From Takakia lepidozioides (taxonomy: Eukaryota; Plantae; Bryophyta), in the NCBI GenBank assembly GCA_030704615.1, contig CM060732.1, positions 24,056,001 through 24,120,000 on the forward strand: a stretch of 64,000 bases of DNA, read 5' to 3'. Position 1 is the first letter of the stretch, and every line of letters begins with the position of its first letter. Positions 3,254 to 63,422 of this stretch are shown piece after piece. The position numbers and the translations under genes were made by a program. Under the pieces are notes generated by a model. The model searched no databases, had not been told where the DNA came from, and saw nothing but the letters and a program-made list of their open reading frames with translations.

Positions 3254-3978
3254 TGTCGCGCACCTCACTTCGGTTAGCTCCCCCCTCAAGTCATAGTTAC
3301 TCGCTTGATGCGCGCGCCTAACTCCCAACCTGGCCGCCACGCCAACTTGGAGCTCCGGCTGCTCACCGGGGCATAACGGTCCCCCTTTGATCTCCCAAAG
3401 AACCCTCCAACGATTTGGAACCCGCGGAATTCCCTTTGGTAGTTGGCAGTCTGGAACAGCTCCCACTCTTTGGTCGCTTTCCGGCTCGCTCGCTTACCCA
3501 CTAGTTTTTGGTCACCAACGGGCTTGCACCGTTCTCGGGGTTACTACTCCCTATATATACTTCTGAAGCTATCTGCGGGGGTTTCACAAACAACCATGCC
3601 ATTTTATGGCGAACCACCACGAACACCCTCGACTCCCGGTGATGAGTCGCGGTGAGTCTTGGCCCACTCACCACGGCCCTTATGGACTGTGATGAGTCCC
3701 AAGACTCCCCACGACTCCCACCACGAGGTCTCCGCCCCAGGGTGAGTCCTATGCCACCCCCACTAAGTCCCGCTAAGCTACCACCACCCCTTGTGGAGCC
3801 ACCCCCACCACAACCCGGTGTGTGGGGCTCCACCTAGTGAGCGCCTCCGCCTCCTTGAGTGCCTTGGGCACTCAAGGGTGCTTCAGCCCCCCATACCTAT
3901 CGTTGCCACTGCCCCCACCACAGGGGCAGCCCCTCTTGTGTCCCGACCCCCTGCCCCTCAAGGCAAAGGGCCGCGACA
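3254..3978 (-). repeat. 3' LTR of element B
   Basis: TG...CA ends; matches 8638-9265 plus 21274-21369. Confidence 0.95.
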
Positions 3979-4884
3979 CACACCCCTACCAACAGGGAGT
4001 CGATGTCCTCATCGGCTTGTCCATTTTGTAGAAACGAACATCCAAGTTGTGGCGTCCCACATCAAGGAGTTTGTTTCCGTACCATGGCGTCCCATGGCAA
4101 AGAACCAAACCCCACACTTGACTCTACTCTCCACTAGCTAGTTCGGCCGACTTCCTCCAAGTTTTGGCCAAGGGTGGAGCATCTCAAGCTCCTCCCAGTG
4201 CACTCTTCTTGGCCTACTTCAAGGCCAAGGAACGATCCTCCCCGAGGATCGAATCGCCTTACTGCAACAACATTGCTTGCGACCGCTCATGATGCCGCTT
4301 TTGGCATCACCTTGAGCAAGGGTTCACCTCGAACCCTCTTTGACTAGGAAGATAACCTTGAACCAACCGCGCGCCCCAATCACTACAATTGGGTCCGCCT
4401 TGGAATGCTGGTATGAGGTACGGGAACACGCCGAAGCCGCACTACGACTTCGTCCCGAGACTACACGATTATAGTACGTGAACGGAAGCACGTAGCTTCC
4501 GCGTTAGCCCGCACTACAAAGCAACCCCCTTGGTAGCACAGTTATAGTATGCGCACGCGCCAGGTGCGCACTAGCACGTGAACTCCTAAAGAAGGCGCAA
4601 GTTTCCTTGCCTCCTGGATGGGAGTCACCCGATTTCGGCACTGCGCAAACACACGATTAACCCAATTTACCTCTCCCACTTTTGTAAGCTAGCATGCATT
4701 CTACACACTAGCCAACCACACCATGCATCACCATTCCAAACAAAATAGGATGCACAACACTTGGAACCCATTTCCTTTATAACAAATTTTTATACAATAC
4801 AAGTTTTTGCAATCGGATTCCTAAGCTAGCTAAGCCAGGCTAAGCATGCATTTCCTCCCCCACGCTCCAAGGTTGATGTCCCCA

Positions 4885-7800
4885 TCAACGCTTCTTCTGC
4901 TTTTGAGGTCGCCCTTCGAAAACTGCAACCGCCTCGGATGCGTTTCCCATTTCTGAGGCACGCACCCAAGATGCCTCCACATGATGATGGCCCTTCTATT
5001 TCACGAGATACTCCGTTTCTCGGTTCTTGAACCTCCTCGACTTAAGTACTGCATCCACCTCATACTCAGGTTCATTTTCATGATCCAACAGCACAGGTGG
5101 CGGACGCAACACTTGATGCCGATTCGGACGCGCTTCATCTTTGAAGTAAGGCTTCAAAAAGGAGACGTGGAATACTGGATGCACCTTGCTGTTTGCCGGC
5201 AGCTCCAATTCATACACATCCTCATTCATAACCTTCCGGATGCGAAAGGGTCCTGCATATGGAGGTACGAACTTTGGACTCACTTCCGGAGGTAGTCGGA
5301 AATTCTTGATGTTCAACCAGACCTCCATGCCTGCCTCAAACTTCACTTCCCTCCGCTTCCGATTTGCCTGTCTTTCATACCGTTTCCTAGCTTTGGCAAT
5401 GTTGTACTTTGCGAGCTTCAACAAACGCTCGCGTTCTTCCAGCACCGCCGCTACTACCGGTTTCCTCAACGTCCTGGGCGGCCCAACTTGTCGGCACCAC
5501 ATGTGCTTTTCCATAGACCAATACGAAAGGGGAAACTCCCGTTGCGGAGTGTTTTGTGTTATTATAACAGAACTCTGCCGCGTCTAAGTGTTCCACCCAG
5601 TCTGTTTGGTCTACCGACACGTAAATCCGCAAGATCTGCTTCACTACGGAATTCACTCTTTCCGTTTGGCCGTCGGTCGTAGGTCAGAAGGCGGTGCTCA
5701 TCTTCAGCCTCGTCCCCATCTTCTTCCAAAGTGCCCTCCAAAATTTACTCGTAAACTTTGGATCGCGGTCCGAGACAATATCCTTCGGGAGTCCATGATG
5801 CTTTAAGACGTGGGCGAAGTAAAGTCGCCATGTTTCCTGCGCCGTTGCCGTCTCTTTGGTGGGGATGAAATGGCCCATTTTACTGAACCTATCCACCACC
5901 ACCATGATTGCATCAAATCCTTTTGACAACGGCATAGCAGTCATAAAATCCATCGAGACGCTTTCCCAAGTCCCCTCTGGAATCGGCAAGGGTTGTAATA
6001 GCCCCACTTGCTTTTTGTACTCGCTCCGGTTTTGTTGGCATGTGGTGCATGTCTTGACATACTCCTCTGCCTCTTCCCTCAGTTTGGGCCAGAAATACTC
6101 TTTCTTCAAGAGTGCCGCAGTGCGCTTCGCTCCGCCATGGCCCGCAAGCGGGCTATCATGGCATTCTCTCAAGAGGCTATCTCTGATCCCTCCCTTCGAC
6201 ACGTAGAGACGCTTTTGCTTATACCGAAGCAGTCCATTTTGCAAGTGGAACTGCGATTTAACCCCCATCCTCAAGTCCTGCATCACGGACTTTGCCAGCT
6301 CATCCTTCCGACAAGCCTTCCGGATCTTCCTTTGGAGCACCGTCTCGCCCCTGTACACCAACAAGAGCTGCTGCTTTCTACTTAAAGCATCGGCCACCAC
6401 GTTGTCCCGTCCCGGTTTGTACTGGATATCCACGTTGAACACCGCCAAAGTATCTTGCCACCTAAGTTGTTTTGGGGACAACTTGGGCTGCGTGGCAAAA
6501 TACTTCACCGTGACATTGTCCGTGAACACCTTCACTGGGTTGGAACCAACATAGTGGCGCCAAAGCTCAAGACAGTGCACCACCGCCTTCATCTCTTTCT
6601 CGTGCGTCGGCCACCGTCGCTCCACTTCATTCAGTTTCTTACTTTTGTAAGCCACTGGACGTCCATCTTGCATCAGTACACCCCCAATCGCGAAGTCCGA
6701 CGCATCTGTATGAATCTCGAACGGAAGATCGAACTCTGGGATTTTCAAGACTTGAGCTTCCGCCATCCGCTGCTTCAATTCAGCAAAAGCTTGGCCACAA
6801 AGGTGTTCCATGCCCAGACTTTGGATTTACACAGAAGGTCTGACAGCGGCCCCGCGATCTTGGCGAAATTTCTCACATACTTCCGGTAATAGGAGGCGAG
6901 TCCTAGGAAGGATCGCACTCCCGGGACCGAAGTCGGAGGCTCCCAGTCCAAGATTGCCCTCACCTTCCTGTCATCCATTCTGATCCCATCCTGTGTAATC
7001 ACATGCCCCAGGAACTCCACTTTTGTGACCCCGAATTTGCACTTTGAAGCTTTGGCATACAGCTTCCATTCCCGCAATTTCTGGAACACCCTTTTGAGGT
7101 GCTCCAGGTGCTCCTCCTTTGTTTTTGAATACACCAAGATGTCGTCGATGTACACGATCACAAAGTCATCCAACCACTTCTGGAAAAGGCTGTTCATCAG
7201 CGTGCTAAAGGTCGCGGGAGCGTTGGTGAGTCCAAAAGGCATCACCAAGAACTCATATGAACCATACCTTGTCCTGCATGCGGTCTTCTCCTCATCTCCT
7301 TCCGCCACTCGAATTTGATGATAGTCGGAGCGCAAATCGATCTGGCGGAAATACTTCGCTCCTGCCAACCGATCGAAAAGGTCGTCGATCCTTGGCAAAG
7401 GGTATCGGTTTTTGATAGTCACCTTATTCAAAGCCCTGTAATCGACACACATCCGCAGCGTCCCATCCTTCTTGTCTGCGAATAGCACCGGGGCTCTGTA
7501 AGGTGACTTATTTGGCCGGATGTACCCCTTTGACATTAGATCTTTGAGCTGAGTCTTCAGCTCGATCAACTCTCTGTGGCTCAACCGGTAGGGCGCCTTA
7601 GCAGGCGGTTCCGATGCCGGTATCACCTCAATCTTGTGGTCAACTCCTCTTCGCGGTGGCAAGCCGCTTGGTAAATCCTCCGGCATCACATCCTGGTATT
7701 TCTCCAAAATCCCCTTGATCCAATCTGGGCTCGGCTCCCCATCGCCTTCTCCCTTCACTTCTCTAATGTAGAGCAAAATCTGGGGCTCGTGTGCCTCCTC

Positions 7801-8582
7801 CACGGCCCACTCAATTGCCTCGTTCAAAGTCTTAGGTGGCTTCTCCTCCAACTTCTGCCTGGCCCATGGGGCCAGTCCCGCCACAAAGTTGAAGACCATT
7901 TCTGGTTTTTCCATGTCCGCGATTTCGAGCAACAGCACATTGAAAGCCTGGACATATCCCCGAATGTCATCTGTTTGCTTCAAATTCCTCATCTTGTCCC
8001 GGGCGAGCCAGGACGCGTTGAGAGGCACAAACTGCCTCTTCATCAATTCCTTGAACCCACTCCAGTTCAAGGTTTCCGGGCTTGGACCTCGGTCGTGAAG
8101 GCGTTTCTGCCACCATTGTTGAGCATAGCCCCTCAAATAGGTGGGAGCCACTTCCACCCGATCCTCGTCACTCAACTTGGCCGCCCGGAAGTACTGCTCT
8201 AGCTCCAAGAGCCAGGTGTTGAGTGCCTTCCGATTTCGGACGCCCTCGAAGGTGCCGGGTTCCTTAGGCTTCACCTTAAACTTTGCCTTAGTGGAAGTTG
8301 CATTAGCCGCCTTCAACACGTCTTTCAACGTCCCGCCAAATTGCGCCAACAACCCTTCCCAAAAGGCTGTCGGCATGGGAGGCATCTGTTGGTCGGTCGG
8401 AGCTCTCAGGGATTCCTCAGGCTCCGACTCCTCAGATTCCTCCCGCTCTTGAGCGGTCTTGTTTTCGGAAACATGCATCGCTTTCTCAAACGGCCGCCTC
8501 AATGACACGTCGCCCCCATCGGGCTCACCAGGATCATCATCTTTTGGGCCGTTCCGCTTCCGCTTTGGCTTGCCCGACCCAT
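4885..8582 (-). pseudogene. gag-pol: Element B gag-pol lacking zinc knuckle and protease
   Basis: ORFs 6775..8508, 5684..6811 and 4996..5514: gag fused directly to RT (EAIE|WAVEE), RNase H, integrase, chromodomain; several frameshifts. Confidence 0.92.
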
Positions 8583-8637
8583 GATGAGGCCAATCCCAAG
8601 GATGATCACGTACTGAACTCTAAGCTCTGATACCAAG

Positions 8638-9265
8638 TGTCGCGCACCTCACTTCGGTTAGCTCCCCCCTCAAGTCATAGTTACTCGCTTGATGTGCGCG
8701 CCTAACTCCCAACCTGGCCGCCGCGCCAACTTGGAGCTCCGGCTGCTCACCGGGGCATAACGGTCCCCCTTTGATCTCCCAAAGAACCCTCCAACGATTT
8801 GGAACCCGCGGAATTCCCTTTGGTAGTTGGCAGTCTGGAACAGCTCCCACTCTTTGGTCGCTTTCCGGCTCGCTCGCTTACCCACTAGTTTTTGGTCACC
8901 AACGGGCTTGCACCGTTCTCGGGGTTACTACTCCCTATATATACTTCTAAAGCTATCCGCGGGGGTTTCACAAACAACCATGCCATTTTATGGCGAACCA
9001 CCACGAACACCCTCGACTCCCGGTGATGAGTCGCGGTGAGTCTTGGCCCACTCACCACGGCCCCTATGGACCGTGATGAGTCCCAAGACTCCCCACGACT
9101 CCCACCACGAGGTCTCCGCCCCAGGGTGAGTCCTATGCCACCCCCACTAAGTCCCGCTAAGCTACCACCACCCCTTGTGGAGCCACCCCCACCACAACCC
9201 GGTGTGTGGGGCTCCACCTAGTGAGTGCCTCCGCCTCCTTGAGTGCCTTGGGCACTCAAGGGTGC
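8638..9265 (-). repeat. 5' LTR of element B, main segment (remainder at 21274-21369)
   Basis: The LTR sequence breaks at ...CAAGGGTGC and resumes as GTGCTTCAGCC at 21270. Confidence 0.93.
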
Positions 9266-9350
9266 TGTCGTGCGCATACATATCGCTACACAACTACATC
9301 GCTGTCCAAACCACCCCACACATATATGCACAATAAAGTAGTTTACCACA
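9266..9350 (-). repeat. Terminal repeat A of element C (85 bp, displaced part of the 5' LTR)
   Basis: Appears identical to 9702-9786 by eye. Confidence 0.92.
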
Positions 9351-9351
9351 A

Positions 9352-9786
9352 TGATAGAAATCCAATGAACACACTGTGACACAAAACATGAAAACCAAAC
9401 CATCACTCTTAGAAAATAGTAGTCAAGCCAGGGGCACCCCAAGCTATGGGGACTCCACCCCACAACAACGTGTACCCCTACATAAGCACACTCAAATCTA
9501 AACACATGCAGGAGCTCGGTCGCGCAGGCTCAACTCGAGAAAGATGAGCCGCGCGACTGCCGCTTTCGTGAAGATAAGACGGACCAGGTGTCAAACTAAA
9601 CTTGACACCTGATTTAACACTTGACCTAAATCCAAGTGTTAAATACAAATAACTAGTTTTATTCTAGCTGTTTTCACACTGTGCTTATTTAACTTGACAG
9701 CTGTCGTGCGCATACATATCGCTACACAACTACATCGCTGTCCAAACCACCCCACACATATATGCACAATAAAGTAGTTTACCACA
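9352..9786 (-). repeat. Intact 435-bp 3' LTR of element C (B + GC + A), lying internal to the element end
   Basis: Minus strand TGTGGTAAA...TTTCTATCA, preceded by AGGGGGGCG-AT (PPT plus 2 nt); contains the palindrome GACAGCTGTC at 9696-9705. Confidence 0.85.
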
Positions 9787-9788
9787 AT

Positions 9789-9797
9789 CGCCCCCCT
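9789..9797 (-). promoter_or_regulatory. Polypurine tract of element C
   Basis: AGGGGGGCG followed by AT and then TG of the 435-bp LTR. Confidence 0.65.
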
Positions 9798-10045
9798 AGC
9801 TGGTGGATAGGTCCCTCTACCTCCAGATAGCTACAAGACGTAATAGCCATAGCCGTACTAAGTCCTGTATCACTGTCCCTATCGCACTCAAACTCTATAG
9901 ACCAAGAGGCCGGGTACAAGAGTAGCCCCATCGTTAGTCGCCGTCTTGCAATCTGTGAACTTGAGCCAGGACTTCGTGTATTCAAGGTCTCCTGTAGCTG
10001 GGCCTTGCGTTGCTTGTTAGCCTCCCATGGTTGTATCCACTCCCA

Positions 10046-10264
10046 CTATCCAATGCATTGTGGACATAACCAATCCCCATCTGGAACCATCTCAAGAGGT
10101 GGAGTCAAGCACCCCATATGCCAACCTCTAGAGCATCGATCACACACCAGCATGGTGGCTGCCCCTTTAGCAGACCCACACAACATGCACCTCAAACCTG
10201 CAGATACCACTGCCAGGTTTGGGTCAATCCTGCCATCGACATTCGGAAGTGACATGGCGCACAA
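10046..10264 (-). CDS. PHD finger at the C-terminus of element C integrase (frameshifted from INT)
   Basis: CMLC...MLVCDRCSRGWHMGCLTPPLEMVPDGDWLCPQC is a C4HC3 PHD. Confidence 0.9.
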   Translation of the reverse strand: MCAMSLPNVDGRIDPNLAVVSAGLRCMLCGSAKGAATMLVCDRCSRGWHMGCLTPPLEMVPDGDWLCPQCIG

Positions 10265-11500
10265 TTACGCACATGGTCCTTCCAAGTTATGCCATCCCGA
10301 CCCTCCAAGACCAAGACGCCTGAGGGCAAGACCTCTCGTACCCTCAAAATAACACGTCCTGCAGTCACATCCAGGGTCGTAGGAGCAGTCTGCTGCAGAT
10401 AGACATAGTCACCAGGGTTGAATCTCCGAACCCCAGGACGATAGCCCCCACCACGTATGGTAGCATACCTCAACGTATCACGGTGTTGTGCAATGGCAAG
10501 GTTCTCGAAAGCCATGGGCATGACTCTCTTGAACAACTCTGCACGATGCTCACATGCACGTGCCCATACGTCCGGATCGTCAAGGTTAAGAACTGTAGCA
10601 GCTTCTCTGCGAATGGATGTAGGCAAATCCGGCTCTCGGCCAAAGAGAAGAAAGTATGGTGAGAAGGAGGCAAGTGATGCTTGCTTGCTGAACCTGTAGC
10701 CATGGCTAACCAGGGTAACTGAAGGTCCCAATCTCCTAGGTGTCCCTTCTGCAAGCCATACTTGCGCAAACCCCTCTTACTGTCTGAACAACTCTCTCTG
10801 CCAAGCCATCGGCCTCAGGATGATCCCGAGAAGTGGTGCGGTGGTCTATCAAGGCCTTGTCACACAAAGCCTGAAACTCCCCCAAGAACTCTCTCCCTTG
10901 GTCCGTGAGTACCTCAGCTGGAGCACCGAATCGGCTAAGCACACAATCCAAGAATGCATACGCAGCTCCCTCACTAGCCTTATCAGGCAATGGAACCAAT
11001 TCAATCCACTTGGAGAAGTGCTCCACCATCACCAACACGTACTTGTTGTGGCGCATGGTCAGTGGCAACGGCCCTGCGAAGTCAAGACTCCACCTGTAGC
11101 CCAATCCCATGATCGGAAGAGGGTGCAATTGTGGAGTAGGGGCGTTGAATGAAGCACGCACCCTGTCACACACCATGCACCTAGCCACAAATTGTTGCAC
11201 CTCTGTGTGCATACCACGCCACCAATACTGCCCCTGCAGTAGGCTATGGGTGCGTCGCACCCCAAAATGCCCCAACTCCTCGTGGGCATGCCGCACTAAC
11301 TGTGCCCGCTGTGTTGGGTGAGGCACAATCCTCACTCGACCATCCTCCCACACTCGGAGCAGGTGTGTCCCCTCCCACTTGAACCTCTTGGCTCGTTGTA
11401 GGATCCGATCCCTCTCCTTGGCAGTCACAGTGGCTGCGTGTCTCCAGTGCGAAGATAGTCCAACACAGCTGAATCCTCATGTATATCTTTGGCGCCACCT
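10265..11500 (-). pseudogene. pol: Element C DDE integrase
   Basis: HAHEELGH...CMVC zinc finger; WSLDFAGP, VLTDQGREF, ADGLAERVV catalytic D-D-E; frameshifts near 11430 and 10740. Confidence 0.92.
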
Positions 11501-11690
11501 TGCTCATTGCTGGCCTCAGGGTCCTCAGACACTTGATCCACAGTCATCCCTGTTGCAGGTCCAACCTGGCCTTCCGCTGCCAAGATACACAGAAATGCAG
11601 ATGCATGCCATCCGGGCACCATCTCCTCGTCCGTCTCACCATGCCACCGAGCTCCAGTGTCATCCTGCTGGCTCGTGCATGGATTGCGAC

Positions 11691-13120
11691 TCAACCCATC
11701 TGCATTGCGATTGACCAAACCGGTCGATGCACCACCTGAAAGTCATACTCTTGAAGGATGAGTGCCCACCGTGCAAGCTTCCCCGTAAGCTTGTCTGACT
11801 CCATCAACCACTTGAGTGGTTGATGATCCGTGACAAGGGTGAAGAGATTGCCGTATAAATAGCACCTGAAGTGTGCCACGGCCCACACTGCAGCTAAGCA
11901 TTCTCCCTCATATGAGCTATACTTAGACTCTGCAGCATTGTTCGAGCGGCTAGCATAAGCCACTACGAACTCTCTTCCCTCATCATCCACCTGTGTGAGC
12001 ACCGCTCCAAGCCCCAGCATGCTCCAATCTGTATGCAGCTGAAAAGGACGCCCCCTGATAGGTCGTCTCAAGATGGGCGCCGAGGTCAACCTCGCCTTGA
12101 GCTCTTGAAAAGCTTGTTCTTGCTCATCTTCCCACTGCCACTCCTGGTCCACCTTGGTCAGCTGGTTAGAGCCTTTGCAATGGCACTAAATCCCTTAACA
12201 AACCGTCTGTAATAGTTTGCTAACCCCATGAAAGCTCGAACTCGGCTCACATCCGTGGGGGGGAATGGAATGGACTCTACCTTAGTCTGCTGTACCCCCA
12301 ATCCTCCAGGATATATCATGTGACCCAGATACTCAATCTGGTTGTGGAAAAACTTGCACTTGCCCGGATGTAACTTCAATCCGTGCGTCCTCAAGCGCTC
12401 AAATACCCCCTGAAGGTGTCTCTCATGCTCCTCCACCGTAGCACTAAAGATGATGATGTCATCTATGTAGCACCGAGCAAACTCCACCCCTGCTAGAATC
12501 CTGTCCATGACTCTTTGAAACTCAGCGGGAGCGTTTTTAAGCCCAAATGGTAAGAACCGCCACTAGTATAGGCAATCCTTCCCGTGCTCGTTGATCCCCC
12601 AGAATGCCGTTTTTTGCTTATCCGCCTCCTTGATCGGCAACTGGTGATATCCGGATCGTAAATCCAACGTGCTAAAGACCTTGGAATGCCCAATGGCATC
12701 AAAGATCTCCTCTGGTGTTGGCATGGCATACCTATCGGACTTGGTCTGACGATTTACAGGCCGGTAATCACCGCACATACGTCTCTCCGTCCAATTGCCA
12801 TAGACATCCTTCTTAGCTGGCATCACTGTGGCTGAAGCATACTCTCCACCAGAGAGCTCCACCAAACCTGCCTCCCAGAGATCTTGAGTCCTCATCTGAA
12901 TCAAAGACCTCTCCATGTCACTGTATCTATAGGGTCTCCGAAAGATTGGCGTGTCAGTGGCCAACTCAATACGGATCTCTTGACCCTTCAGTGCTCCCAA
13001 GTCCTTCAAACTGAAGGCACAGCAATTCCTATAAGCCCTCAGGAACCGCCGTATACGTCGTCTCTCTCCTCCGGTGACAATGGGTCCAATGTCAGGCTCC
13101 CAATTGTCCTCCGTAACTGC
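11691..13120 (-). pseudogene. pol: Element C reverse transcriptase and RNase H
   Basis: RMCGDYRPVN, LDLRSGYHQ, LPFGLKNAP, CYIDDII; RNase H LHTDWS...YEGECLA...TDHQPL. In-frame TAG at 12563 and frameshifts. Confidence 0.92.
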
Positions 13121-13209
13121 AACCTTAAGTCCAGTGGGCTTAGAGGTAGAGGACGCGTCCCGTGGTTGCTATGCTGCAACCTCTTGAGCAGTACCCCCTT
13201 CCTGCTCAG

Positions 13210-14526
13210 TCAATGACAAGGCCTCATCCTGCCCCATCGTCTCATCATTGAGAACCTCCTCATCCCGAGAAGAATCCCCAACCCATCCATCACAGCTGCC
13301 TTCGCTGCCAACTCCCTCTGAACCTCGAGCACCTCCCACATGTGCCATGGATGTCTACACCTCGTGGTCCTCACCGGCTCGCCCCCACTCGCTGCCTGTA
13401 CCGTCTCGGTAGGCAGAGAGACCGTCAAGGGAAGTGCACTCCGCACTCTACGTTGCTCAGCCATAGCCAAGCTGACAATCCAGGTCAAGCAATTGAGATC
13501 CATTGCTTGCCCCAACACCTGACGACGTGATGCCTCAGAAAGAGAAGGCACCGCCGTGGTCCCAGTGTGAAAAAACCCCATAGCCCGCTCTCGCTCGTCG
13601 GCATTAGGCTCCACTAACTGCTGCAACTGAGCATCCCACAAGAGGCCAGGTCCACCATCCCGAAAAGCATGGGATCCTGGGAAGCTGAGCAGTGTAGGTA
13701 ATGCTGCTCGTGGTTGACCCACCCTGTTGACCACTGCCAAAGGCGAACGGTCATCGTGTCTCACACGTTGAGACTGCCTTCCTGTGTCCAAAATGCCATC
13801 CACGGTGAGGTGTGCTGGCCGCTGCACCCCATCAAATGCACGCTTGAGCAGTGCGGGTGGCATCAAGTTAGTCCACCATAGTCGTGGACGATGAGCCCGT
13901 GACCCCACTGCAGCTGCATCCAGCAACACTGCTGACCCAAGCCACGACCGGACTTGATGCACACTGGCCATCACCCTGGCCCGAGAATCACCCATCAGTG
14001 GTACATTCTCCAAGATGTATGCTGGAGATACAGCTTGATGAAGCTGCAAGCAGCGCAAAATCCGCACCATCTCCCAAAACAGACCCGTCCTCGAGTCTCG
14101 CAATCCATTGCCATGCCCGGCTGATGAATGCCCTTGGCAGGGCCAACCTGCCACTATCAGATCAATGGAGCCAACCTGCTCCAAATCTTGCGCCCCCAAC
14201 AAGGAAATGTCTGCTGGCAAGGCTTGTTGGTATCCACGAACTGCAGACACAGGCAACAAGTCAGGGTACTGCTGTACCAACTGAGCCACATGGCGCAGTG
14301 AGACACGTCGTGCAGTCTCATCCCTCTCCACATACAGGTAACGCCTTACCCGCACACCTGCCTGTAGCACAGCAGCCAATCCGGTGCTGATCCCGCCAAA
14401 CAAGTCCAGAAGGCAAATGCCTTCATCCGGCCGCTGCCACATAAGAGGTGTGGTGTCCAATGACGACAACTGAGGTGGCCCTGGTGCGATCACCGCACTC
14501 TCCTCCTCTCTTGACGGTACAAAAGC
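13210..14526 (-). CDS. DNMT3-like C5-cytosine DNA methyltransferase domain within the element C polyprotein
   Basis: Motif I LDLFGGISTG, IV IDLIVAGWPCQ, VI YILENV, VIII LLDAAAVGSRAHRPRLWWTNL, IX ERERAMGF, X RRQVLGQAMD. In frame with gag-PR after a single TAA. Confidence 0.92.
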   Translation of the reverse strand, partial: AFVPSREEESAVIAPGPPQLSSLDTTPLMWQRPDEGICLLDLFGGISTGLAAVLQAGVRVRRYLYVERDETARRVSLRHVAQLVQQYPDLLPVSAVRGYQQALPADISLLGAQDLEQVGSIDLIVAGWPCQGHSSAGHGNGLRDSRTGLFWEMVRILRCLQLHQAVSPAYILENVPLMGDSRARVMASVHQVRSWLGSAVLLDAAAVGSRAHRPRLWWTNLMPPALLKRAFDGVQRPAHLTVDGILDTGRQSQRVRHDDRSPLAVVNRVGQPRAALPTLLSFPGSHAFRDGGPGLLWDAQLQQLVEPNADERERAMGFFHTGTTAVPSLSEASRRQVLGQAMDLNCLTWIVSLAMAEQRRVRSALPLTVSLPTETVQAASGGEPVRTTRCRHPWHMWEVLEVQRELAAKAAVMDGLGILLGMRRFSMMRRWGRMRPCH

Positions 14527-17373
14527 TTATTCCCAAGCTTGTTGCACCCGTCCATCAGCAGCTTGCTGCAAATCCTTGCTCGTACCCCACAACGGAGTGT
14601 GAGCAACCATGGCAGGCAACTCCGCCGTACCATGCATGTCATCCTGCTCTGCTGGAGGTGGCACATCCTCTGCATGGGCATTGCCTTCCAGCAACTCTCC
14701 AGGCCAACTAACGGCAGCTGTGAAGGCGGCTAGTGTTGGCATCTTGCCCCGCTGGGCAGCTGCAATACCCCCAATGAATGTCACAGGGAGCTGTGCACGG
14801 CAACCATCCCCCGACTGCCATCCAGGCCTGTAGGATGCTGACTCCTCCCAGAAATCCAGGGTGAAGCCCATGGGGTATAACACTGCCCCACCAACGAGGA
14901 CATCGTAAGAGACCGCGTCTGTCACAATGGCCTTGGCTCGCATCACTGAGCCATCTACAGGATGATCCAGCTGCAGTCTAATAGCCAACTGATGTCGTGT
15001 CATGCCGCGAGCCTGCTCTGATCCTCCCAGAGATGTCTGTATCTGGAAAGGACAAGGCTCCATATCCGCCTCCATGAGGCCCAAACCTGCAATAGCAGCT
15101 CTGCCCAACATCAGTGGCTGAGCTCCTGAGTCCAACAAGACTCGTAGTGGCCGGTACTTCTTGCCTGCCGGTCCACTCAAAGTGAAAATGCCTCCCTGGT
15201 TGTCTAACAAGACAACTCCAGGTGTCACCATGGCGCGCTCAATGGCTGGCCTAGCTGGCAGCTCCGTCAACCTGGCAGCTGCAACTTGCCATGGCGCAGC
15301 CGTGGCAGTCTTGACCCTCAAATCCGAGGATCCCTCTGCCACTACACCTTCCACTAACTCCGCAGAAGATGAAGTGACCTCCCCACTCTCACAGAGTGTT
15401 GCTGCTAGTCTGAACACTGCAGCTGGTCTCACCCCCGGCGTCGCAATCATTGTTGCCAAGAACAGTGGGGCCTGACACACAGAGGTGGCTGCCCCCAATA
15501 ACACACCGGCCGCACTAGCCTTGGCAGCAGGAGTCAATGCTGCACGTGTAGCTCTCCCCAATGGCATAGTAACCTCCGCCTCAGTAACAGTCGGGCGAGA
15601 ACTAGGTGCCATGGATGGCGTCGACATAGTCTCCGCCAATGTGAATGACTGAGGAAGCCTTGCCTGACGGCTTGTCTCCCCACGCTGTGGATCCAATTCC
15701 ACCTCTGCACCTCGTGGCTCAGGAACTCGTGCTGCTCCTCGAGTCACGGCTGCAGCAGACTCCACCTGCTCTAGTGGTAGTGCTGCTCCGCACATAAATC
15801 CCATGCCTCCCATATCTCCTCCCTCAGGAGCAGGAGGTGGACCATCCCGCCTGGGAGCCGGTACCGCCTGAGCTATAGCCATGGCAGCGAGCCTCTGCTC
15901 TAGCTGCTGAAGCCGGTTGGCCATGCCTTGATCAACGCCCTGACCACCGCGTCCTTGGCCATGTTGAGCTTGCCCTTGGCCTGCACCTCGTGCCCGACCA
16001 CCTCGTCCTCTCTGGGCTGGTCCACCTCGCCCCCGGCCACCATTGTTCCCTTGGAACTGGCCTGGGCGCAACTCAGGATGCAAGTCATAACACTGGGCAT
16101 CTCCATGCCCATACTTGCCACAATGCACACACTGCAACTGTGCAGGCTGTGCTTGTGCTGGCCTTCTGCCACTCTCTGGGCAATCTCTCTTGACATGGGG
16201 TCCTCCACATGTCCAACATATCACCCCTGGTTGCTGTTGGCCTGCAAAAGATGCCACGGGCCTCTGCACTTGAGGTCCCCTGTAAGCTCCATGGAACTTG
16301 GGCTGGGCAACCTTGCCCCCCTGACCACGCTGTTGGGCAGTCCCTTGTGTCTGTGGGCTGACAGTTGTGCCCCGTACAGGCATGTCCTTGCCAAATCCAA
16401 TTGTAACAACTCGCTCCTCCACCATGTTGAGCTCAATCCGCTCAGCCAGTAGAAACACATCTGTTAATGTGGGTTGGGCTGCTTGTAACAGGGTTGCATC
16501 TCGCACCCTTCTCTTGAGCTCCTTGTCCAGAATTCCATACCAAAACTGGATTGCCTGAGCTTCAGTAACCCCTTGGGTCACACTTATCAAGCGCCTCATA
16601 CGAGTGTACGCCTCTCGCAGGCTCTCACTGGGTTTGCGCTGGAAGTCTTGCAAACTTCGCAGCTTCTCTGTCCGTACACCTTGGTAGTTCCTCCGCAAAT
16701 CCTGGAAGAACTCCACCACCGGGTTGAATCTAGGCACATGTGTTGTAGTCGTGGCAGGAGGAGTAGTAGCACCTTTTGAACTGGTACCACCTGCAGAAGT
16801 ACCAGCACTACTTGCTCCACTACTAGTGCTGGCAGTGGGAGCTATTGGTACTGATGTAGCTACTGGTCGCGTCGTGCCTCGAGTAATGGAGACGTAGTCA
16901 GGTGACCAATACATCCTCCACTCCTCAATCTCTGCTTCATGTCCTCGCCTGAACTCGTGGTAATCGTCCATAGGCGGGCCTTCCAAATGCTGGAACAGTC
17001 CCTTCCACGCCATGAATGGGGTGAATAGCTGTGGATTGCGCATCTGCTGCAAATCACACCAGCTGTCAAACTCCTGGATAAAGTCATCCAACTCAATTGT
17101 GCCCACAGCTCCAGAGTACCTACGAGGCCCCTTGGTAGCTCCATACATCTCCTCCATGTCGTCCCACAACAATGGCGAATGAAAGTGCACACTTGTTGAT
17201 GAAGCCTCCGAGTCTGTGTCTGACTCTACAGTAATTGAAGGTGGCGGTGAAGGTGGTCTGAACCGAATACCTCGTCTTGTGAACCCACTCTCACTGTTAC
17301 TGCCTGTAGCCGTACTCCCCTCAAAACCCTTGGGTAACTCCGTAATGACACTCATAATGTGCACCTCCTCCAC
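14527..17373 (-). CDS. gag: Element C gag-protease (two CCHC-type zinc knuckles, RGG-rich region, aspartic protease)
   Basis: 948-aa open frame; FQRKPSESLREAYTR capsid-like motif; CWTCGGPHVKRDC and CVHCGKYGHGDAQC; VLLDSGAQP...YDVLVG protease. Confidence 0.88.
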   Translation of the reverse strand: MEEVHIMSVITELPKGFEGSTATGSNSESGFTRRGIRFRPPSPPPSITVESDTDSEASSTSVHFHSPLLWDDMEEMYGATKGPRRYSGAVGTIELDDFIQEFDSWCDLQQMRNPQLFTPFMAWKGLFQHLEGPPMDDYHEFRRGHEAEIEEWRMYWSPDYVSITRGTTRPVATSVPIAPTASTSSGASSAGTSAGGTSSKGATTPPATTTTHVPRFNPVVEFFQDLRRNYQGVRTEKLRSLQDFQRKPSESLREAYTRMRRLISVTQGVTEAQAIQFWYGILDKELKRRVRDATLLQAAQPTLTDVFLLAERIELNMVEERVVTIGFGKDMPVRGTTVSPQTQGTAQQRGQGGKVAQPKFHGAYRGPQVQRPVASFAGQQQPGVICWTCGGPHVKRDCPESGRRPAQAQPAQLQCVHCGKYGHGDAQCYDLHPELRPGQFQGNNGGRGRGGPAQRGRGGRARGAGQGQAQHGQGRGGQGVDQGMANRLQQLEQRLAAMAIAQAVPAPRRDGPPPAPEGGDMGGMGFMCGAALPLEQVESAAAVTRGAARVPEPRGAEVELDPQRGETSRQARLPQSFTLAETMSTPSMAPSSRPTVTEAEVTMPLGRATRAALTPAAKASAAGVLLGAATSVCQAPLFLATMIATPGVRPAAVFRLAATLCESGEVTSSSAELVEGVVAEGSSDLRVKTATAAPWQVAAARLTELPARPAIERAMVTPGVVLLDNQGGIFTLSGPAGKKYRPLRVLLDSGAQPLMLGRAAIAGLGLMEADMEPCPFQIQTSLGGSEQARGMTRHQLAIRLQLDHPVDGSVMRAKAIVTDAVSYDVLVGGAVLYPMGFTLDFWEESASYRPGWQSGDGCRAQLPVTFIGGIAAAQRGKMPTLAAFTAAVSWPGELLEGNAHAEDVPPPAEQDDMHGTAELPAMVAHTPLWGTSKDLQQAADGRVQQAWE

Positions 17374-17892
17374 GTGACACTATAAGGCTCTAGTACTAAT
17401 CTAATAGTGACACGGGTGGGCACCTGTTGCAGTTTAAGGGTCGTATCACAATGGCTCAGGGCACCTGCACCTGCATCCACCGCAAGAACTCCTATGGTTG
17501 GCTGGTCATCAACCCAGCCTCACCATAGAAGAAACACTGGTGGTCTTGCTGGTCATCACTCCAGCCTCACCACCGACAGCATACTCTAGGATTGACCGGT
17601 GATCAAATCCGGCCTAATCCCTATGAAAGCAAGCGCCCACACAAAACCAACATGGCGCACAGTCAAGCATGCAGGTGTTGGGGGGGATCCAAACACAAGA
17701 AATCAAAACATCAACACCCCCACACCAAAATCCAGCTGCAATGCTGATCCTGCAGAATATCCCAGCCCAAAACCCCGGACTGACTGGCCTCCACCAAGAG
17801 AGGCTTTGGCAACTACGAGTACAAGATAATGAAAATAGTACAGAGATGGAGGGGAAGAATAGAAGTTCGCCCAAGCAAGATCTAATCCTGAT

Positions 17893-18642
17893 CTATGCTA
17901 TCAACTTCCAGACTTCTCTCAAAGTGCCTCGCTCTGCGTGATGGTAAGGTGTAGGAGGTATATCTATGTCCAGAAACCTGCCACTAACCTTGTCCCAAGC
18001 TACAGTAGCTCGCTCTAACCAACCCTCCTCCTCTTTCTGCCAGGTAGAGACAAAGCAATACTCCCCTATCTCCCGCTCACTGAACACTAAAGAAAACAAA
18101 GGTAGGGTCTGATAGTCTCTCAACTCGAAAGCTTTGAGACGGTTGCGGGTGTCTTCATTGCGAATGACTGCATCGCCTTCAAACAGAACAAACTTGTCCT
18201 CGCTAATGAACCCCCGCTCGTGGTTGCCTTGTGCAGAGCGTGTCCGACTGCAACACTGTCTAATTGCACAAACTTGTGTAGCTCCTGCTCCTCTGCTCCA
18301 GTACACCACGGCCTTGTGACTGAACACCTTGGTCCCCGGGGCTGTCTTTGGCTGTGTTCCAAGCCTAGCTTTCACCCACTTTGGTATTTCACCTACAGCT
18401 GCAGAACTGCTGGCTCCAACAGAGTTCTGACTGTCCAAGGCGATATTGAGGCCCTCAATGCCAACTACAGCAGTCTGTTGTCTACTGCTAATGCCTGACT
18501 CCCAGTATGCAATCAACTCGTCCAACTGTTCTCCACTCAAATCAGTCTGAGTTCCTTGGGAAACATAAATCTTGTCCCCTTTGGTGCACAGGCTAAGAGA
18601 AGAGACCTGCCCTTCAACGACGTCCTCATTTCCCCCAGCCAT
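17893..18642 (-). CDS. Unknown 249-aa ORF upstream of gag in element C
   Basis: ATG-initiated open frame co-oriented with gag; no recognisable motif. Confidence 0.5.
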   Translation of the reverse strand: MAGGNEDVVEGQVSSLSLCTKGDKIYVSQGTQTDLSGEQLDELIAYWESGISSRQQTAVVGIEGLNIALDSQNSVGASSSAAVGEIPKWVKARLGTQPKTAPGTKVFSHKAVVYWSRGAGATQVCAIRQCCSRTRSAQGNHERGFISEDKFVLFEGDAVIRNEDTRNRLKAFELRDYQTLPLFSLVFSEREIGEYCFVSTWQKEEEGWLERATVAWDKVSGRFLDIDIPPTPYHHAERGTLREVWKLIA

Positions 18643-19469
18643 ACAAGGAGTACATCCACAGATTTGTCTCTAATATAGACCAGCACAGGTTCTAGAGACA
18701 GGATTGTGGATCTTTCATGGCACACTCACACTCTAAAAATTCCATAGATTTTTAGCAGAGTCCCAAAAACAGAAACCAGGTCTAGATAGGTAGATTTCCC
18801 CTTTCTGCAGCTATCCCCTCAAAAACTGAGTCAAACGGAGCTCATTTGACAAAGATATGACCAACCAGGCTCTTTAAACATTTAAATTAGATCAAAAAGG
18901 CTTTGTTTTTTTTTTTTTTTTTTTAACACCAAAACGCTTTTGCCATTACAACTTGTTCCCAGGTTATCTACGAGTTCCCGAGGTCGTTCCCCTCCAGGAT
19001 TCTCCAGGCACCAAGAGCTCGTTAATTCCAACACTCGACCTCAGTTGGGTGGGGTATCACGATTTGCTTTTCTCTGCGCGTGGGCCTGCCTCCTCGAGAC
19101 CTAGAGACTACAAACCAGGAATTGGGGCGATTTCAAGAGCAGATGCACTGCGCAGCACCTTCATGGCTTATGGACAGGCGGCCTGCTGTGATGTGGCCGT
19201 CTTGGCATGGAATCCAAAGCCAAGACCAGCTTGAAGTTCCATCAACTTGGTCTAATTCGCATCTCTCATGTTTTCCTGCAACGGGCATTGACGCCCACAA
19301 TTTCCAGGGCTTGCACTGAAGCATTTCTAAGCTGTTCTTAGGCCACTAACACACCCTGTGTAGCTGCAGAAATTGTTCCCACGGGACCCTATAGATTCAC
19401 CTGTAAGGCTGCTCAACGCCTGAGCTTAGAGTATGGTTGGATCACTTGCTCATTAAAGGCCCACAGAAT

Positions 19470-20057
19470 ATCTACAAAAGGACCCCAGCCTGACCACCAC
19501 CTGCTTGTGCCAGCTTGTTCAAAGATTTGCCCAGGTACTTTCCTTGTCTCTCAGCAACACTCTTTGTTTGCGGTAGGGCTTCCATTAGTAACTGGATCAA
19601 CTGCCAAGCTTCCACCAGGGCACTTCTTCACAGGTAAGGAGTGGACAAAGGAAGAAGATCCAACACCCATTGATCAAACCAGCAGCCCGTATGGCACCTC
19701 CGTCCCATCCGTAAGCACTAATTTGTCTGGCAGAACATCCTTGACTACATCTTGCATCAGCTTTACCCCAGTCTGAAAACAGTTATGCATTTAAGATCCT
19801 CCAGCTTATCCCTCCAAACCCTTGATCAGGTGTCTGGTCGCGTACTCCCGGAGTCGAACATCGAAAGATGAAAAAAAATCTCCTTTGCCTCAATAAGTGT
19901 GACATGGATAAAATCTTTCACATGGCCGAACTAGCCGTACTAGCCGTAGACGTCTCTCCTGATGAGTCACTGAGCTCACCACTAAGTTCCACCCCTGTAG
20001 GACCACCACCTACAACAACACAGTGTAGCAGTCTTGCCTTCTCATCTGCTGATATCC
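19470..20057 (-). pseudogene. NDA: Captured fragment of a type II (alternative) NADH dehydrogenase NDA gene
   Basis: [73 protein letters not shown]. Confidence 0.85.
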
Positions 20058-20152
20058 CTGCAATCCATTTTGAAAAAAAAAAAAAACTGTCCAGGTACTG
20101 CATGCTGGATTGCCTTGTCGGTTGTTGGCTAGTCCCACCACTGCTGTATTTA

Positions 20153-20206
20153 GCCTTCTATCACATGAATCAAGTCGTCCACAGTGGTGTCTTCCCTAAA
20201 CAGCAC
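20153..20206 (-). pseudogene. DRG: Captured fragment of a DRG-family GTPase gene
   Basis: [18 protein letters not shown] versus the conserved DRG motif VLFREDATVDDLIDVIEG. Confidence 0.65.
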
Positions 20207-20709
20207 TTGCCACTACTGTCCTTGTCAATGGTGATTCAGTTAGAGTCACCCCTGAATCACGATAACTTGCAGCCCCAAGTGGCAACGTTCAGATGTGGAC
20301 CCACTTTTGAGACCCACCAAATGTCATTTATGCCCAGTCCTCTGCCAAGTCACAGATACACACAACTAGTTGGATCAGAGCCTTCTTCCGAGCAAGGCAT
20401 TCTTTTCCGCGCTGCAGTGTCATCTGCTGCCAAAAATTTGGAAGACAAGCTTCCACCCACTGTTCCACATCATCATCATCGTTCGTTGTGACTTCAAGCT
20501 TCTGATTCTGCAAAGCCTGGACAGTCAAGCGGTTGTTCATTTGAAAGAGGATCAGTGGTATGCAATGAAGCCTTCAGACATGACACACAAGACCAGAAGA
20601 GCTCCTCTATAAGCTTACTGGTGAAACGATCATCCAGCTTCAAGGATCATGCATAGGTGCCAACTAGCATTTGCTGCTGCATTTTTAAGTATCTCCTTGT
20701 GTACCCCAA

Positions 20710-20829
20710 AGCCTCTAGTGACTTGGTAGCTTCAGCGACTGCAATAACAATGGCGGCTCTGGCATCGTCATCCTCCAGGCGTTTCAGGGCACGCTGAATC
20801 TTGTGGTCACATTCAATGATATGCTTCTC
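20710..20829 (-). pseudogene. LUC7: Captured fragment of a LUC7-like splicing-factor gene
   Basis: IIECDHKIQRALKRLEDDDARAAIVIAVAE resembles plant LUC7-like IVECDRKI.RALKRLE.EDAKAAIAISVSE. Confidence 0.7.
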
Positions 20830-20905
20830 AAACTAATCACTACTTATACGCAGGTAATCTTGCAAGTGCTAACCCTCAACTCCTACCTTGCACTCACAGG
20901 TAAGA

Positions 20906-20921
20906 GCTCATCTTTCTCGAG
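20906..20921 (-). promoter_or_regulatory. Self-priming primer-binding site of element C
   Basis: CTCGAGAAAGATGAGC directly after the LTR-terminal CA is the exact complement of GCTCATCTTTCTCGAG inside the LTR (21119 to 21104). There is no TGG tRNA PBS. Confidence 0.8.
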
Positions 20922-21269
20922 TGATAGAAATCCAACGAACACACTGTGACACAAAACATGAAAACCAAACCATCACTCTTAGAAAATAGTAGTCAAGCCA
21001 GGGGCACCCCAAGCTATGGGGACTCCACCCCACAACAACCTGTACCCCTACATAAGCACACTCAAATCTAAACACATGCAGGAGCTCGGTCGCGCAGGCT
21101 CAACTCGAGAAAGATGAGCCGCGCGACTGCCGCTCTCGTGAAGATAAGACGGACCAGGTGTCAAACTAAACTTGACACCTGATTTAACACTTGACCTAAA
21201 TCCAAGTGTTAAATACAAATAACTAGTTCTATTCTAGCTGTTTTCACACTGTGCTTATTTAACTTGACA
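20922..21269 (-). repeat. Terminal repeat B of element C (348 bp, remaining part of the 5' LTR)
   Basis: Matches 9352-9699 with 4 substitutions counted by eye. Confidence 0.92.
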
Positions 21270-21369
21270 GTGCTTCAGCCCCCCATACCTATCGTTGCCA
21301 TTGCCCCCACCACAGGGGCAACCCCTATTGTGTCCCGACCCCCTGCCCTCAAGGCAAAGGGCCGCGACA

Positions 21370-24300
21370 CGCCTTGGCCCGCAAGCGGGCCATCATGGCA
21401 TTCTCTCAAGAGACTATCTCTGATCCCTCTCATTGGCACATAGAGACGTTTTTGCTTATACCGGAGCAGTCCATTTTGCAAGTGGAACTGCAATTTAACC
21501 CCCATCTTCAAGTCCCTCGTCATGGACTTCGCCATCTCATCCTTTCGGTAAGCCTTCCGAAACTTCCTTTGGAGCGCCGTCTCGCCCCTGTACACCATCA
21601 TGAGCTGCTGCTTTCTACTTAAAGCATCGGCCACCACATTGTCCCGTCCCGGTTTGTACTGGATATCCACGTCGAACAGTGCCAAAGTGTCTTGCCACCT
21701 AATTTGTTTTGGGGACAACTTAGGCTGCGTGACAAAATACTTCACCGTGACATTGTCCGTGAACACCTTCACCGGGTTGGAGCCAATATAGTGGCGCCAA
21801 AGCTCAAGGCAATGCACCACCGCCTTCATTTCTTTATCTTGCGTTGGCCACCGCCGCTCCACTTCATTTAGTTTCTTACTTTCGTAAGCCACTGGACGTC
21901 CCTCCTGCATGAGTACACCTCCAATCGTAAAGTCCGATGCATCCGTATGAATCTCAAATGGGCGGTCGAACTCAGGGATTTTCAGGGCTGGAGCTTCCGC
22001 CATCCGCTGCTTCAACTCGGCAAAAGCTTGGCCACAAAAGGTGTTCCATACCCAGACTTTGGATTTACACAGAAGGTCTGACAGCGGCCCCGCGATCTTG
22101 GCGAAATTTCTCACATACTTTCGGTAATAGGAGGCGAGTCCTAAGAAGGATCGCACTCCTGGGATCGAAGTCGGAGGCTCCCAATCCAAGATTGCTCTCA
22201 CCTTTCTGTCATCCATTTTGATCCCATCTTGTGTAATCACATGCCCCAAGAACTCCACTTTTGTGATCCCGAATTCGCACTTTGAAGCTTTGGCATACAG
22301 CTTCCCTTCCCATAATTTCTGGAACACCCTTTTGAGGTGCTCCAGGTGCTCTTCCTTTGTTTTCGAGTACACCAAGATGTCGTCGATGTACATGATCACA
22401 AAGTCGTCCAACCACTTCTGGAAAAGGCTGTTCATTAGCGTGCTAAAGGTTGCGGGTGCGTTGGTGAGCCCAAAGGGCATCACCAAGAACTCATAGGAAC
22501 CATACCTTGTCCTGCACGCGGTCTTTTCCTCATCTCCTTCCGCCACTCGAATTTGATGATATCCGGAGCGCAAATTGATCCGGCTGAAATACTTCGCTCC
22601 TGCCAACCGATCGAAGAGGTCATTGATATTTGGCAAAGGGTATCGGTTTTTTATAGTCACCTTATTCAGAGCCCTGTAATCGACACACATCCGCAGCGTC
22701 CCATCCTTCTTGTCTGCGAATAGATTCGGGGCTCCGTAAGGTGACTTACTCGGCTGGATGTACCCCTTTGACATTAGATCCTTGAGCTGAGTCTTCAGCT
22801 CGACCAACTCTATGTGGCTCAACCGGTAGGGTGCCTTGGCAGGCGGCTCCGATCCCGGTATCACCTCAATTTTGTGGTCAACTCCTCTTCGCGGTGGCAA
22901 GCCGCTTGGTAAATCCTCCGGCATCACATCCTGATATTTCTCCAAAATCCCCTTGATCCAATCTGGGCTCGGCTCCCCATCGCCTTTTTCCTTCACTTGT
23001 CTTACTTAAAGCAAAAACTGGGGCTCGTGTGGCTCCTCCACGGCCCACTCCCTTGCTGACAGAAGGTTTATTCGCCCTCCCACGGGGTTGGGCGTTTCCA
23101 ACACTCGTAAAACTTCGCCACCATTCCCACACGGTAGCGTGACTACTCTTTTGCGGCCATCTATGACCGCTCCGGATCTCCACAAAAAGGTCATCCCCAA
23201 AATGAGATCCACTCCATCAATCTCGCAAAATGGTGAAGTTCTCGCGTCCCTCCCAACTCCCGAACTGAAGAGGAACATCGAACGCCAACCTCGTCGCCAA
23301 TTGTGGTTCTCCTTTAGCAGAACGCACCTCAATCGAGGCCCCCACACCACTTGTCGGGAGTCCCAGCTTCCGTGCCGTTGCCGGTGTCATGAAGGAGTGC
23401 GACGCTCCTGTGTCCACCAACAACGATACGTTAGTTCCGGAGATTATCCCACTCACAAACATTAACTGACTCCCTTTACGCAAGGCGCCAGTTTTCTGAT
23501 ACAACTCACAAGAGTAGTTGCCTACCTTGCAAGTCTTGGCGACCACTGCCTCCACCAAGCGGCTGATGGAGGCTTCGGATAACTCCGTGGTTGCCCGAGT
23601 CATGTTCAATTGTCGGGGATTCGTACACTTCTTGGCCATGTGCCCGGGCTCCCCGTAATTAAAGCACACTCCATCGAAGGTCGCCTTCTGTCCGCCATAA
23701 GCCGCCGCACCTGGTTTTCCTTTCGGGGCACCGGGTGTCGTCTTGACGTGTGAGGGCCCTCCCTTCGATTTCCATGTGCTATTGTCGCCGCGTGGCCTAT
23801 CCCACTTCTTTTCCGGTTGGAAGGAGTCACCTTCCCGCCGGACCTTCTTGTGGTTCAGCTCCGTACGGCCTTGTCTTTCGTCCCTAGGGACATCCGAGAA
23901 ACATTCAGCCCTTTCAATTGCCTCATTCAAAGTCTTAGGTGGCTTCTCCTCCAACTTCCGTTTGGCCCATGGGGCCAGTCCCGCCACAAAGTTGAAGACC
24001 ATTTCTGGTTTTGCCATGTCCGCGACTTCAAGTAACAGCACATTGAAAGCCTGAACATATCCCCGAATGTCATCCGTTTGCTTCAAATTCCTCATTTTGT
24101 CCCAGGCGAGCCAGGACGCGTTGAGGGGCACAAACTGTCTCTTAATGAGTTCCTTGAACCCACTCCAGTTCAAGGTCTCCGGGTTTGGACCTCGGTCGTG
24201 AAGGCGTTTCTGCCACCATTGTTGAGCATAGCCCCTCAAATAGGTGGGAGCCACTTCCACCCGATCCTCGTCATCCAACTTGGCCGCCCGGAAGTACTGC

Positions 24301-30647: not shown

Positions 30648-31091
<444 letters not shown>

Positions 31092-63000: not shown

Positions 63001-63422
63001 GTGAAGGGTTCCATCTGCTGCAAGCTCCCCCTCAGCCCATGGAAGCTTTGATGCCCACTCCACTTGAAATTTCCTGGTCAAATCATAGTTAGGCTTCACC
63101 TTCTTCAAAGGCACACTATATCTTGCAAATCTGGTGCCTCTTCCTCACTATCATGAGTATCAAAAGACACAAGTACAGTGTCATGAGAGCCCTGAGAGGA
63201 ATCTGAAACTAACACCACTGATGGTGGCATGGAAAGAACTGGTGAAGACCCTGAACTTCTTGAACTACCAGATTCAACATCAGAAGGGAATGGCATTGAA
63301 TCACAAACAAATCTAAGAGGCCAGGCATTCCCCACATTCCTTGAACTCGTAAAGTACTTGTCAAGGAAAGATGGTAATGGCTTCTGTTTTGCAACAGAAT
63401 TTGACATGGTTTTGGGGCTCAT
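60018..63422 (-). pseudogene. Decayed multi-exon hAT transposase (ZNF862/DUF4371-like)
   Basis: RKFQVEWASKLPW...CKVC zinc finger; LTCDELT; HCMAH; FAHSPKR; C-terminal GSVADKRCFS.LSFLKSKLR dimerisation motif; frameshifts. Confidence 0.85.
60711..61257 (-). mobile_element. Probable solo LTR in an intron of the hAT transposase
   Basis: Minus-strand ends TGTGGAG...CTTCACG (near TG...CA), flanking duplication AGCC (60707-60710, 61258-61261), TATTTAA box. Confidence 0.6.

Follow-up and report, generated by a model that had tools for sequence, protein, structure and literature searches.

Two kinds of retroelement lie close to the one analyzed here. Canonical Ty3/Gypsy elements (Metaviridae) have the domain order gag-protease (PR)-reverse transcriptase (RT)-RNase H (RH)-integrase (IN), with an integrase of the DDE type, a primer-binding site (PBS) after the 5′ repeat, a polypurine tract (PPT) before the 3′ repeat, and TG..CA element ends. 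Self-priming is known for the Tf1/Tcn1-type elements (PMC6317226). PAT, TOC, Ngaro, VIPER, and SymbioDIRS-Dnmt3 are tyrosine-recombinase elements with split direct repeats, the internal junction of which reproduces the joined element ends. The legend of Fig. 4c in de Mendoza et al. 2018 describes a Klebsormidium element that has DIRS-like repeats together with Gypsy domains (PMC5890265). Here we describe an element of this sort in the bryophyte Takakia lepidozioides, found in a 64,000-bp stretch of contig CM060732.1 (positions 24,056,001–24,120,000), the whole of which is called the window. The element is decayed and belongs to a Gypsy lineage that is widespread in green plants. In inserted copies, one palindrome in the U3 region of the long terminal repeat (LTR) supplies both the TGTC at the start and the GACA at the end. 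We suggest, with a probability of roughly 0.65, that the DDE integrase cuts that internal palindrome, probably on cDNA whose ends have first been joined into a circle.

The element has the canonical Ty3/Gypsy domain order, DDE integrase, PPT, self-priming, and TG..CA ends. Its PBS follows the 5′ repeat, the PPT precedes the 3′ repeat, and the 4-bp target-site duplication is within the 4–6 bp of that group. It differs in that insertion and cDNA do not share their ends, and in that paired full LTRs are absent, i.e., none of 13 left ends has segment A before segment B. It also carries a PHD finger in place of a chromodomain. With the tyrosine-recombinase elements it shares the split repeats and the internal junction, but it has a DDE integrase, no recombinase, a 4-bp duplication, a PPT, and a self-priming site. 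The layout shared with PAT and Ngaro is thus convergent, with a different enzyme.

The best match among described elements is KnitGypsy-Dnmt3 of Klebsormidium nitens, which likewise combines Gypsy domains with a DNMT3-like methyltransferase (45% identity, E 7e-59, to KFL_009030040). The methyltransferase lies within the Gypsy coding region, P0206 being equated with the published element from its domains, and the split repeats are described as DIRS-like (PMC5890265). The phrase "target site" is absent from the main text of that paper, and the parts of it searched give no termini, palindrome, priming, or integration mechanism. A 2026 preprint, in the part available, merely names Gypsy-DNMT3 (10.64898/2026.05.21.726589). 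The literature searched, most subscription journals and Repbase Reports lying outside it, gave no account of the termini, palindrome, or integration route of Gypsy-DNMT3 elements. The integration route appears to be undescribed. The layout itself is not new: the permuted order, which a first-pass annotation of the window had described, is real but had already been noted in Klebsormidium (PMC5890265). Troyka and the Kuafuorterviruses, considered as relatives, are unrelated as far as their published descriptions go.

The element is 12,004 bp long and lies on the minus strand, as do all its repeats and coding features, running from 21269 to 9266 of the window. In the element's own direction, the order is host GCAC, B1, a 16-nt priming site, a 3.5-kb leader, the coding region, the PPT, AT, A1, GC, B2, T, A2, and host GCAC. 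B1 (20922–21269, 348 bp) is a left terminal repeat without A and begins with TGTCAAG, a putative attachment (att) half-site. The PPT, AGGGGGGCG (9789–9797, read 9797–9789), is a motif also found in relatives, and is followed by AT and then TGTGG. A1 (9702–9786) is the start of U3 and reads TGTGG...CACGACA. B2 (9352–9699, 348 bp) comprises the remainder of U3 plus R and U5. A2 (9266–9350) repeats, at the terminus, the first 85 bp of U3, and its end, CACGACA, is the other putative half-site. B2 and A2 meet at 9351 in an end-to-end U5/U3 joint, TATCA-t-TGTGG, where one A is common to both cDNA ends; the joint is variable in relatives. The palindrome GACA-GC-TGTC (9696–9705), at the A1|B2 junction, is the predicted integrase att site. 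Direct repeat comparison upheld the earlier reading of the layout as B-ORFs (open reading frames)-PPT-A-GC-B-t-A with ends TGTC..GACA. A1 and A2 do not differ over 85 bp, and B1 and B2 differ at 4 of 348 bp. The copy is recent, with 4 differences in 433 repeat bases. Since it is nonetheless broken at several places, it was likely mobilised by proteins from another copy.

The target-site duplication, GTGC, occupies 9262–9265 at the right end, in element orientation, and 21270–21273 at the left end. The sister copy of the host LTR, at ~3870–3890, provides an empty site carrying GTGC once; thus, the 4-bp duplication proposed by the first-pass annotation is real. That annotation had allowed that the GC might be retained with a 2-bp duplication, a caveat now removed, as just 2 of 42 independent right flanks in relatives begin with GC. 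Readings of 2 bp and of 5 bp are both ruled out by the flanks of relatives.

The insertion is the innermost of a three-level nest. It lies inside an LTR of a conventional tRNA-primed Gypsy (3253–21370), itself inserted in the integrase region of a related Gypsy (391–25418; 5-bp duplication ATCTG). The LTRs of the host Gypsy likewise end TGTC..GACA. Such ends are thus ordinary Gypsy att sequence.

Relatives were sought in metagenome contigs, and the best 80 of 413 confirmed matches were taken as related loci. Their 3′ ends are as follows. Twenty-five loci read A-B-A and then flank, one more is cut inside A2, and 25 read PPT-A and then flank. Two others have an inverted B, two have an internal deletion followed by B-A, five are cut or truncated inside A or B, and two are degenerate. 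No complete B2 directly adjoining host DNA is present among these 80. Removal of loci with shared flanks, by ungapped flank comparison, leaves 19 independent insertions ending A-B-A and 23 ending PPT-A, with varied flanks. The last four bases of these 42 right ends are GACA in 36, AACA in five, and GATA in one, that is, GACA or a transition variant. All 13 independent left ends begin at the B half-site, with A upstream in none, so that the ordinary paired LTRs against which the first-pass annotation had set its proposal number 0 of 13. A 4-bp duplication, varied in sequence, flanks each of the eight relatives with both ends visible (three of the full form and five of the short form, B-ORFs-PPT-A); five duplications are exact and three have one mismatch. 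Altogether, 29 of 32 duplication bases match, a value reached by 4 of 100,000 shuffled pairings. The short form makes up more than half of the copies. Among public runs that contain the window's own family, X4, which may share its source with the window, has at least 35 contigs that pass from the A end at 9266 into flanks unlike one another (agreement 0.36). As the first-pass annotation had proposed, the family regularly has the permuted layout.

Two sets of relatives are set apart by their 3′ structures. L015/L017 reads A-GC-B-priming site-inverted B (180 to 1) and is cut at the inverted half-site, about 830–1010 bases after the integrase match. It looks like a plus-strand fold-back product, and its end at the inverted B half-site shows that the half-site works internally without a normal joint. 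In L081 and L018 the 3′ repeat reads straight into the priming site, and L081 is a circular contig; these were set aside as evidence for a circle and are taken as assembly collapse of a multi-copy element. The contigs L081–L084 are plant or algal retroelement sequences inside bacterial and archaeal genome bins, likely through bin contamination. Viral contigs searched for relatives gave no match.

The perfect 10-mer GACA-GC-TGTC is one of nine palindromes of that length in the element. Its presence alone could therefore be chance, which does not hold for its location at both termini and its conservation in relatives. The A|B junction retains the core, GACAGCTGTC, in 25 loci that belong to two families, and changes in the core are almost only transitions. 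A third family (L081, L082, and L018) has the same core; L082 ends A-B-A at CACGACA with identical A copies. In L083 and L084, which are 47% and 43% identical in the integrase region, perfect palindromes of 16 and 20 bp, respectively, surround the same core ~60 bp after the PPT. The repeats around the core diverge between relatives while the core persists. The TG at the start of U3 is present in the window and in family 1, and absent in family 2 and in L081–L084. It follows that the conserved att-like signal is the internal palindrome and not the cDNA end. The first-pass annotation had called the palindrome a second att site inside U3; judged from these sequences, it is likely the only one.

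The A copies and their joint bear on how the terminal A arises. In family 2 (n = 13), the A1–A2 distance is 0.074 within copies vs. 0.107 between copies, a difference matched by none of 20,000 permutations, and relatives show no fixed differences between A1 and A2. Thus, A2 is remade from a copy of U3 in each cycle, rather than inherited as an internal segment. Both cDNA ends of family 2 carry AT. Of 15 joints, six overlap by AT (microhomology), four are blunt, three differ by 1–2 nt (small insertions or losses), and two are deletions. Two-LTR circles are products of non-homologous end joining (PMC7197481), and the B|A joint spectrum would fit such an end-joining scar.

A site does follow the 5′ copy of B, where the first-pass annotation placed a PBS, but it serves self-priming rather than tRNA priming. 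The 16 nt after B1 (20906–20921) are complementary to 21103–21119 inside B1, i.e., 17 nt at the B end pair with B positions 151–167. An equivalent pairing was found in 8 of 10 relatives tested. Priming from B 151–167 places the palindrome in U3. Hairpins are found inside B at 9612–9644, in the 9586–9611 region, and at 21103–21125, one of them overlapping the self-priming sequence; L081, L018, and family 1 have comparable hairpins at their priming sites.

The route that we propose is as follows, all its enzymatic steps being read back from sequence. The RNA would begin near B position 151, prime on itself, and give rise to a linear A-GC-B...A-GC-B cDNA, whose U5 and U3 ends would then be joined with 0–4 nt of slack, as the variable joints suggest. 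Integrase would nick after CA on both strands of GACA^GC^TGTC, a geometry giving CA-3′OH ends with a 2-nt overhang, and the two half-sites would be inserted 4 bp apart with loss of the GC. A cut at the left palindrome of this end-joined cDNA would yield B-ORFs-PPT-A-GC-B-joint-A, and an insertion of this full form would still produce an R-U5...U3-R RNA. The short form would result if the left B half-site were used together with the A half-site on the right, or if a 1-LTR circle were the substrate; having no 3′ R, it would be a dead end.

There is precedent for such cleavage. The integrase of foamy virus is reported to cut the palindromic LTR–LTR junction after CA on both strands (PMC1180852), and 2-LTR circles of HIV can feed integration (PMC4372172). 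The proposed reaction is like that at the 2-LTR circle junction of foamy virus and HIV-1 in both respects, the cut after CA on both palindrome strands and the loss of a 2-nt overhang on insertion (PMC1180852, PMC4372172). Whether the 2-LTR circle is a dead end or an integration substrate is an old question, on which the evidence is mostly from drug blocks or in vitro work (PMC1180852, PMC4372172). The circle form is usually treated as a dead end; the genomic fossil record of this lineage points to internal att cleavage as the normal route. With its defined 10-bp site, and with relatives in Marchantia, Sphagnum, and Calypogeia as native hosts, the lineage lends itself to testing this.

A number of points weigh against this proposal. 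The circle, the intasome, and the cleavage are inferred from sequence. A circle with two equal palindromes predicts the mirror form, B-joint-A-GC-B-ORFs-PPT-A, as often as the form observed. The mirror is seen at 0 of 13 left ends and in none of the five A-only copies whose left end can be seen (rough chance 1.6e-4), so some asymmetry is needed. The short form may have come from later A1/A2 recombination or from assembly collapse. The A1/A2 test is not significant in family 1 (n = 5, p = 0.06), 18 of the 80 loci have no usable 3′ end, and the window's own species may hold conventional copies. L083 and L084, seen without their termini, group with Volvox and Pleodorina proteins in a tree that carries a long-branch warning. 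As to the asymmetry, we speculate that the element's methyltransferase, by methylating one strand at the CG adjoining the palindrome, renders the two sites unequal.

The first-pass annotation held that a 2-LTR circle is cut inside U3 and then integrated. The 4-bp duplications, the variable joint, and the internal half-site ends speak for this; the absent mirror of a symmetric circle speaks against it, as does the fact that integration of linear cDNA followed by repair gives the same product. In that alternative, integrase would cut the left palindrome of linear cDNA and insert both half-sites; host end joining, with no circle, would then seal the break that separates the U5 end from the start of U3 in the released A. 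The same layout, duplication, and variable joint would result, and L015/L017 uses a half-site without a normal joint. Yet each full-length insertion would need a chromosome break, and 13 of the 15 family 2 joints are within 4 nt of precise; the missing mirror form is equally unexplained. We consider this order of events unlikely. Reverse transcriptase could also make the joint, if after U5 it jumped to the other cDNA end through one or two common bases and copied A with no host ligase, the integrase then cutting the palindrome. The joints often do share A or AT between the ends, one has an extra A, and RT clamping on 2-nt overlaps is reported; the same report has clamping require C or G (PMC3035444). 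The four blunt fusions and two deletions among the 15 joints fit end joining as well, and we regard a jump as improbable.

The repeat geometry, A1-B1-A2-B2 (PMC4157794), is also that of a PAT/Ngaro-like element, which a tyrosine recombinase, either encoded by the element or supplied by another, would integrate at the internal A|B junction. The first-pass annotation had named such an enzyme in intact members as a finding that would speak against its reading. No tyrosine recombinase family has a Pfam match in 81 frames (14 + 67, from the window and six relatives), a scan that covered 46 of 99 listed relative frames, including all 13 frames of at least 110 aa of the near-intact L081. In addition, the insertion duplicates 4 bp and loses 2 bp and so is not conservative, the targets are varied, and the DDE triad is intact, which together make a recombinase very improbable. 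Least credible is a one-off event in the window, i.e., a broken circle captured once, a nested insertion, or an error of assembly. Among the matches listed, no read or contig spans the whole structure, but the 42 independent relatives ending at the same half-site, the duplications in eight of eight, and the same layout published for Klebsormidium (PMC5890265) refute it for the family.

A broader form of the internal-cleavage proposal may be put forward tentatively, at somewhat less than even odds. An ancient lineage, extending from chlorophyte algae to bryophytes, would have uncoupled the att site from the cDNA ends, a replication-competent copy arising only via a 2-LTR circle cut at the internal palindrome. 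It would be a natural, obligate circle-integrating DDE retroelement, its own methyltransferase possibly choosing the palindrome. Proteins related to the methyltransferase (124) and to the integrase C-terminus (134) are assigned to Marchantia, Calypogeia, Riccia, Sphagnum, Klebsormidium, Pleodorina, and Volvox. An LTR finder that requires paired TG..CA LTRs, as in PMC6317226, would overlook this abundant family in seed-free plants, since the element has no paired full LTRs.

A Pfam scan of the coding region gives the order gag-PR-DNMT-RT-RH-IN-PHD, the gag and protease matches being weak. The gag with CCHC-like motifs and the aspartic protease occupy 14527–17379. The DNMT3-like C5 cytosine methyltransferase (13210–14526; PF00145, E 2.6e-13) has visible FGG, PCQ, and ENV catalytic motifs. 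The reverse transcriptase and RNase H (11724–13108) are interrupted near 12563 by a stop and near 12162 and 11722 by frameshifts. The DDE integrase (10246–11476; Pfam rve) consists of an HHCC zinc finger, a D-D-35-E core, and a C-terminal region, with frameshifts near 10775 and 10243; its triad is intact, the D and E being 35 residues apart. A frameshifted PHD finger lies at the integrase C-terminus (10049–10264; PF00628, E 2.6e-12). The L081 Pol has Ty3 as its best solved relative (E 6.7e-100), a statement of similarity only. The first-pass annotation had found only a DDE integrase recognisable. This stands as regards a recombinase, but it overlooked the methyltransferase, the PHD finger, and a retrocopy described below.

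Between the methyltransferase and RT, a TAG stop followed by CAA (13169–13171), kept in relatives, is likely read through. An in-frame stop separates gag-PR-methyltransferase from RT-RH-IN in 19 of 32 loci (16 TAG and 3 TAA), L002, L081, and L018 included, with CAA or CAG as the next codon. UAG-CAR is a leaky-stop context. Should readthrough occur, methyltransferase synthesis would reach Gag-like levels and the enzyme would be packaged into particles. With the conserved in-frame TAG-CAR, in the window and in these 19 loci, methyltransferase and RT do not share one ORF, which distinguishes the land-plant copies from KnitGypsy-Dnmt3.

The leader of the window copy has captured a retrocopy of a type II NADH dehydrogenase mRNA (18906–20160, left boundary approximate), recognized by sequence comparison. 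It is decayed, ends in a 19-nt poly(A), and was not found in the leaders of relatives. A 258-aa ORF in the leader (17896–18669) was considered as a conserved gene and ruled out, having no match in Pfam or in the fetched related loci.

Elsewhere in the window, 30645–31091 is a nuclear fragment with codons that appear to need C-to-U editing; we take it to be mitochondrial cox1-like. The segments 33636–37807, 54545–56014, and 60018–63031 contain two divergent genes with similar N-terminal Cys motifs, presumably OCTOPUS/DUF740-like, as well as what we assume to be a DYW-type PPR gene and hAT-like transposase fragments.

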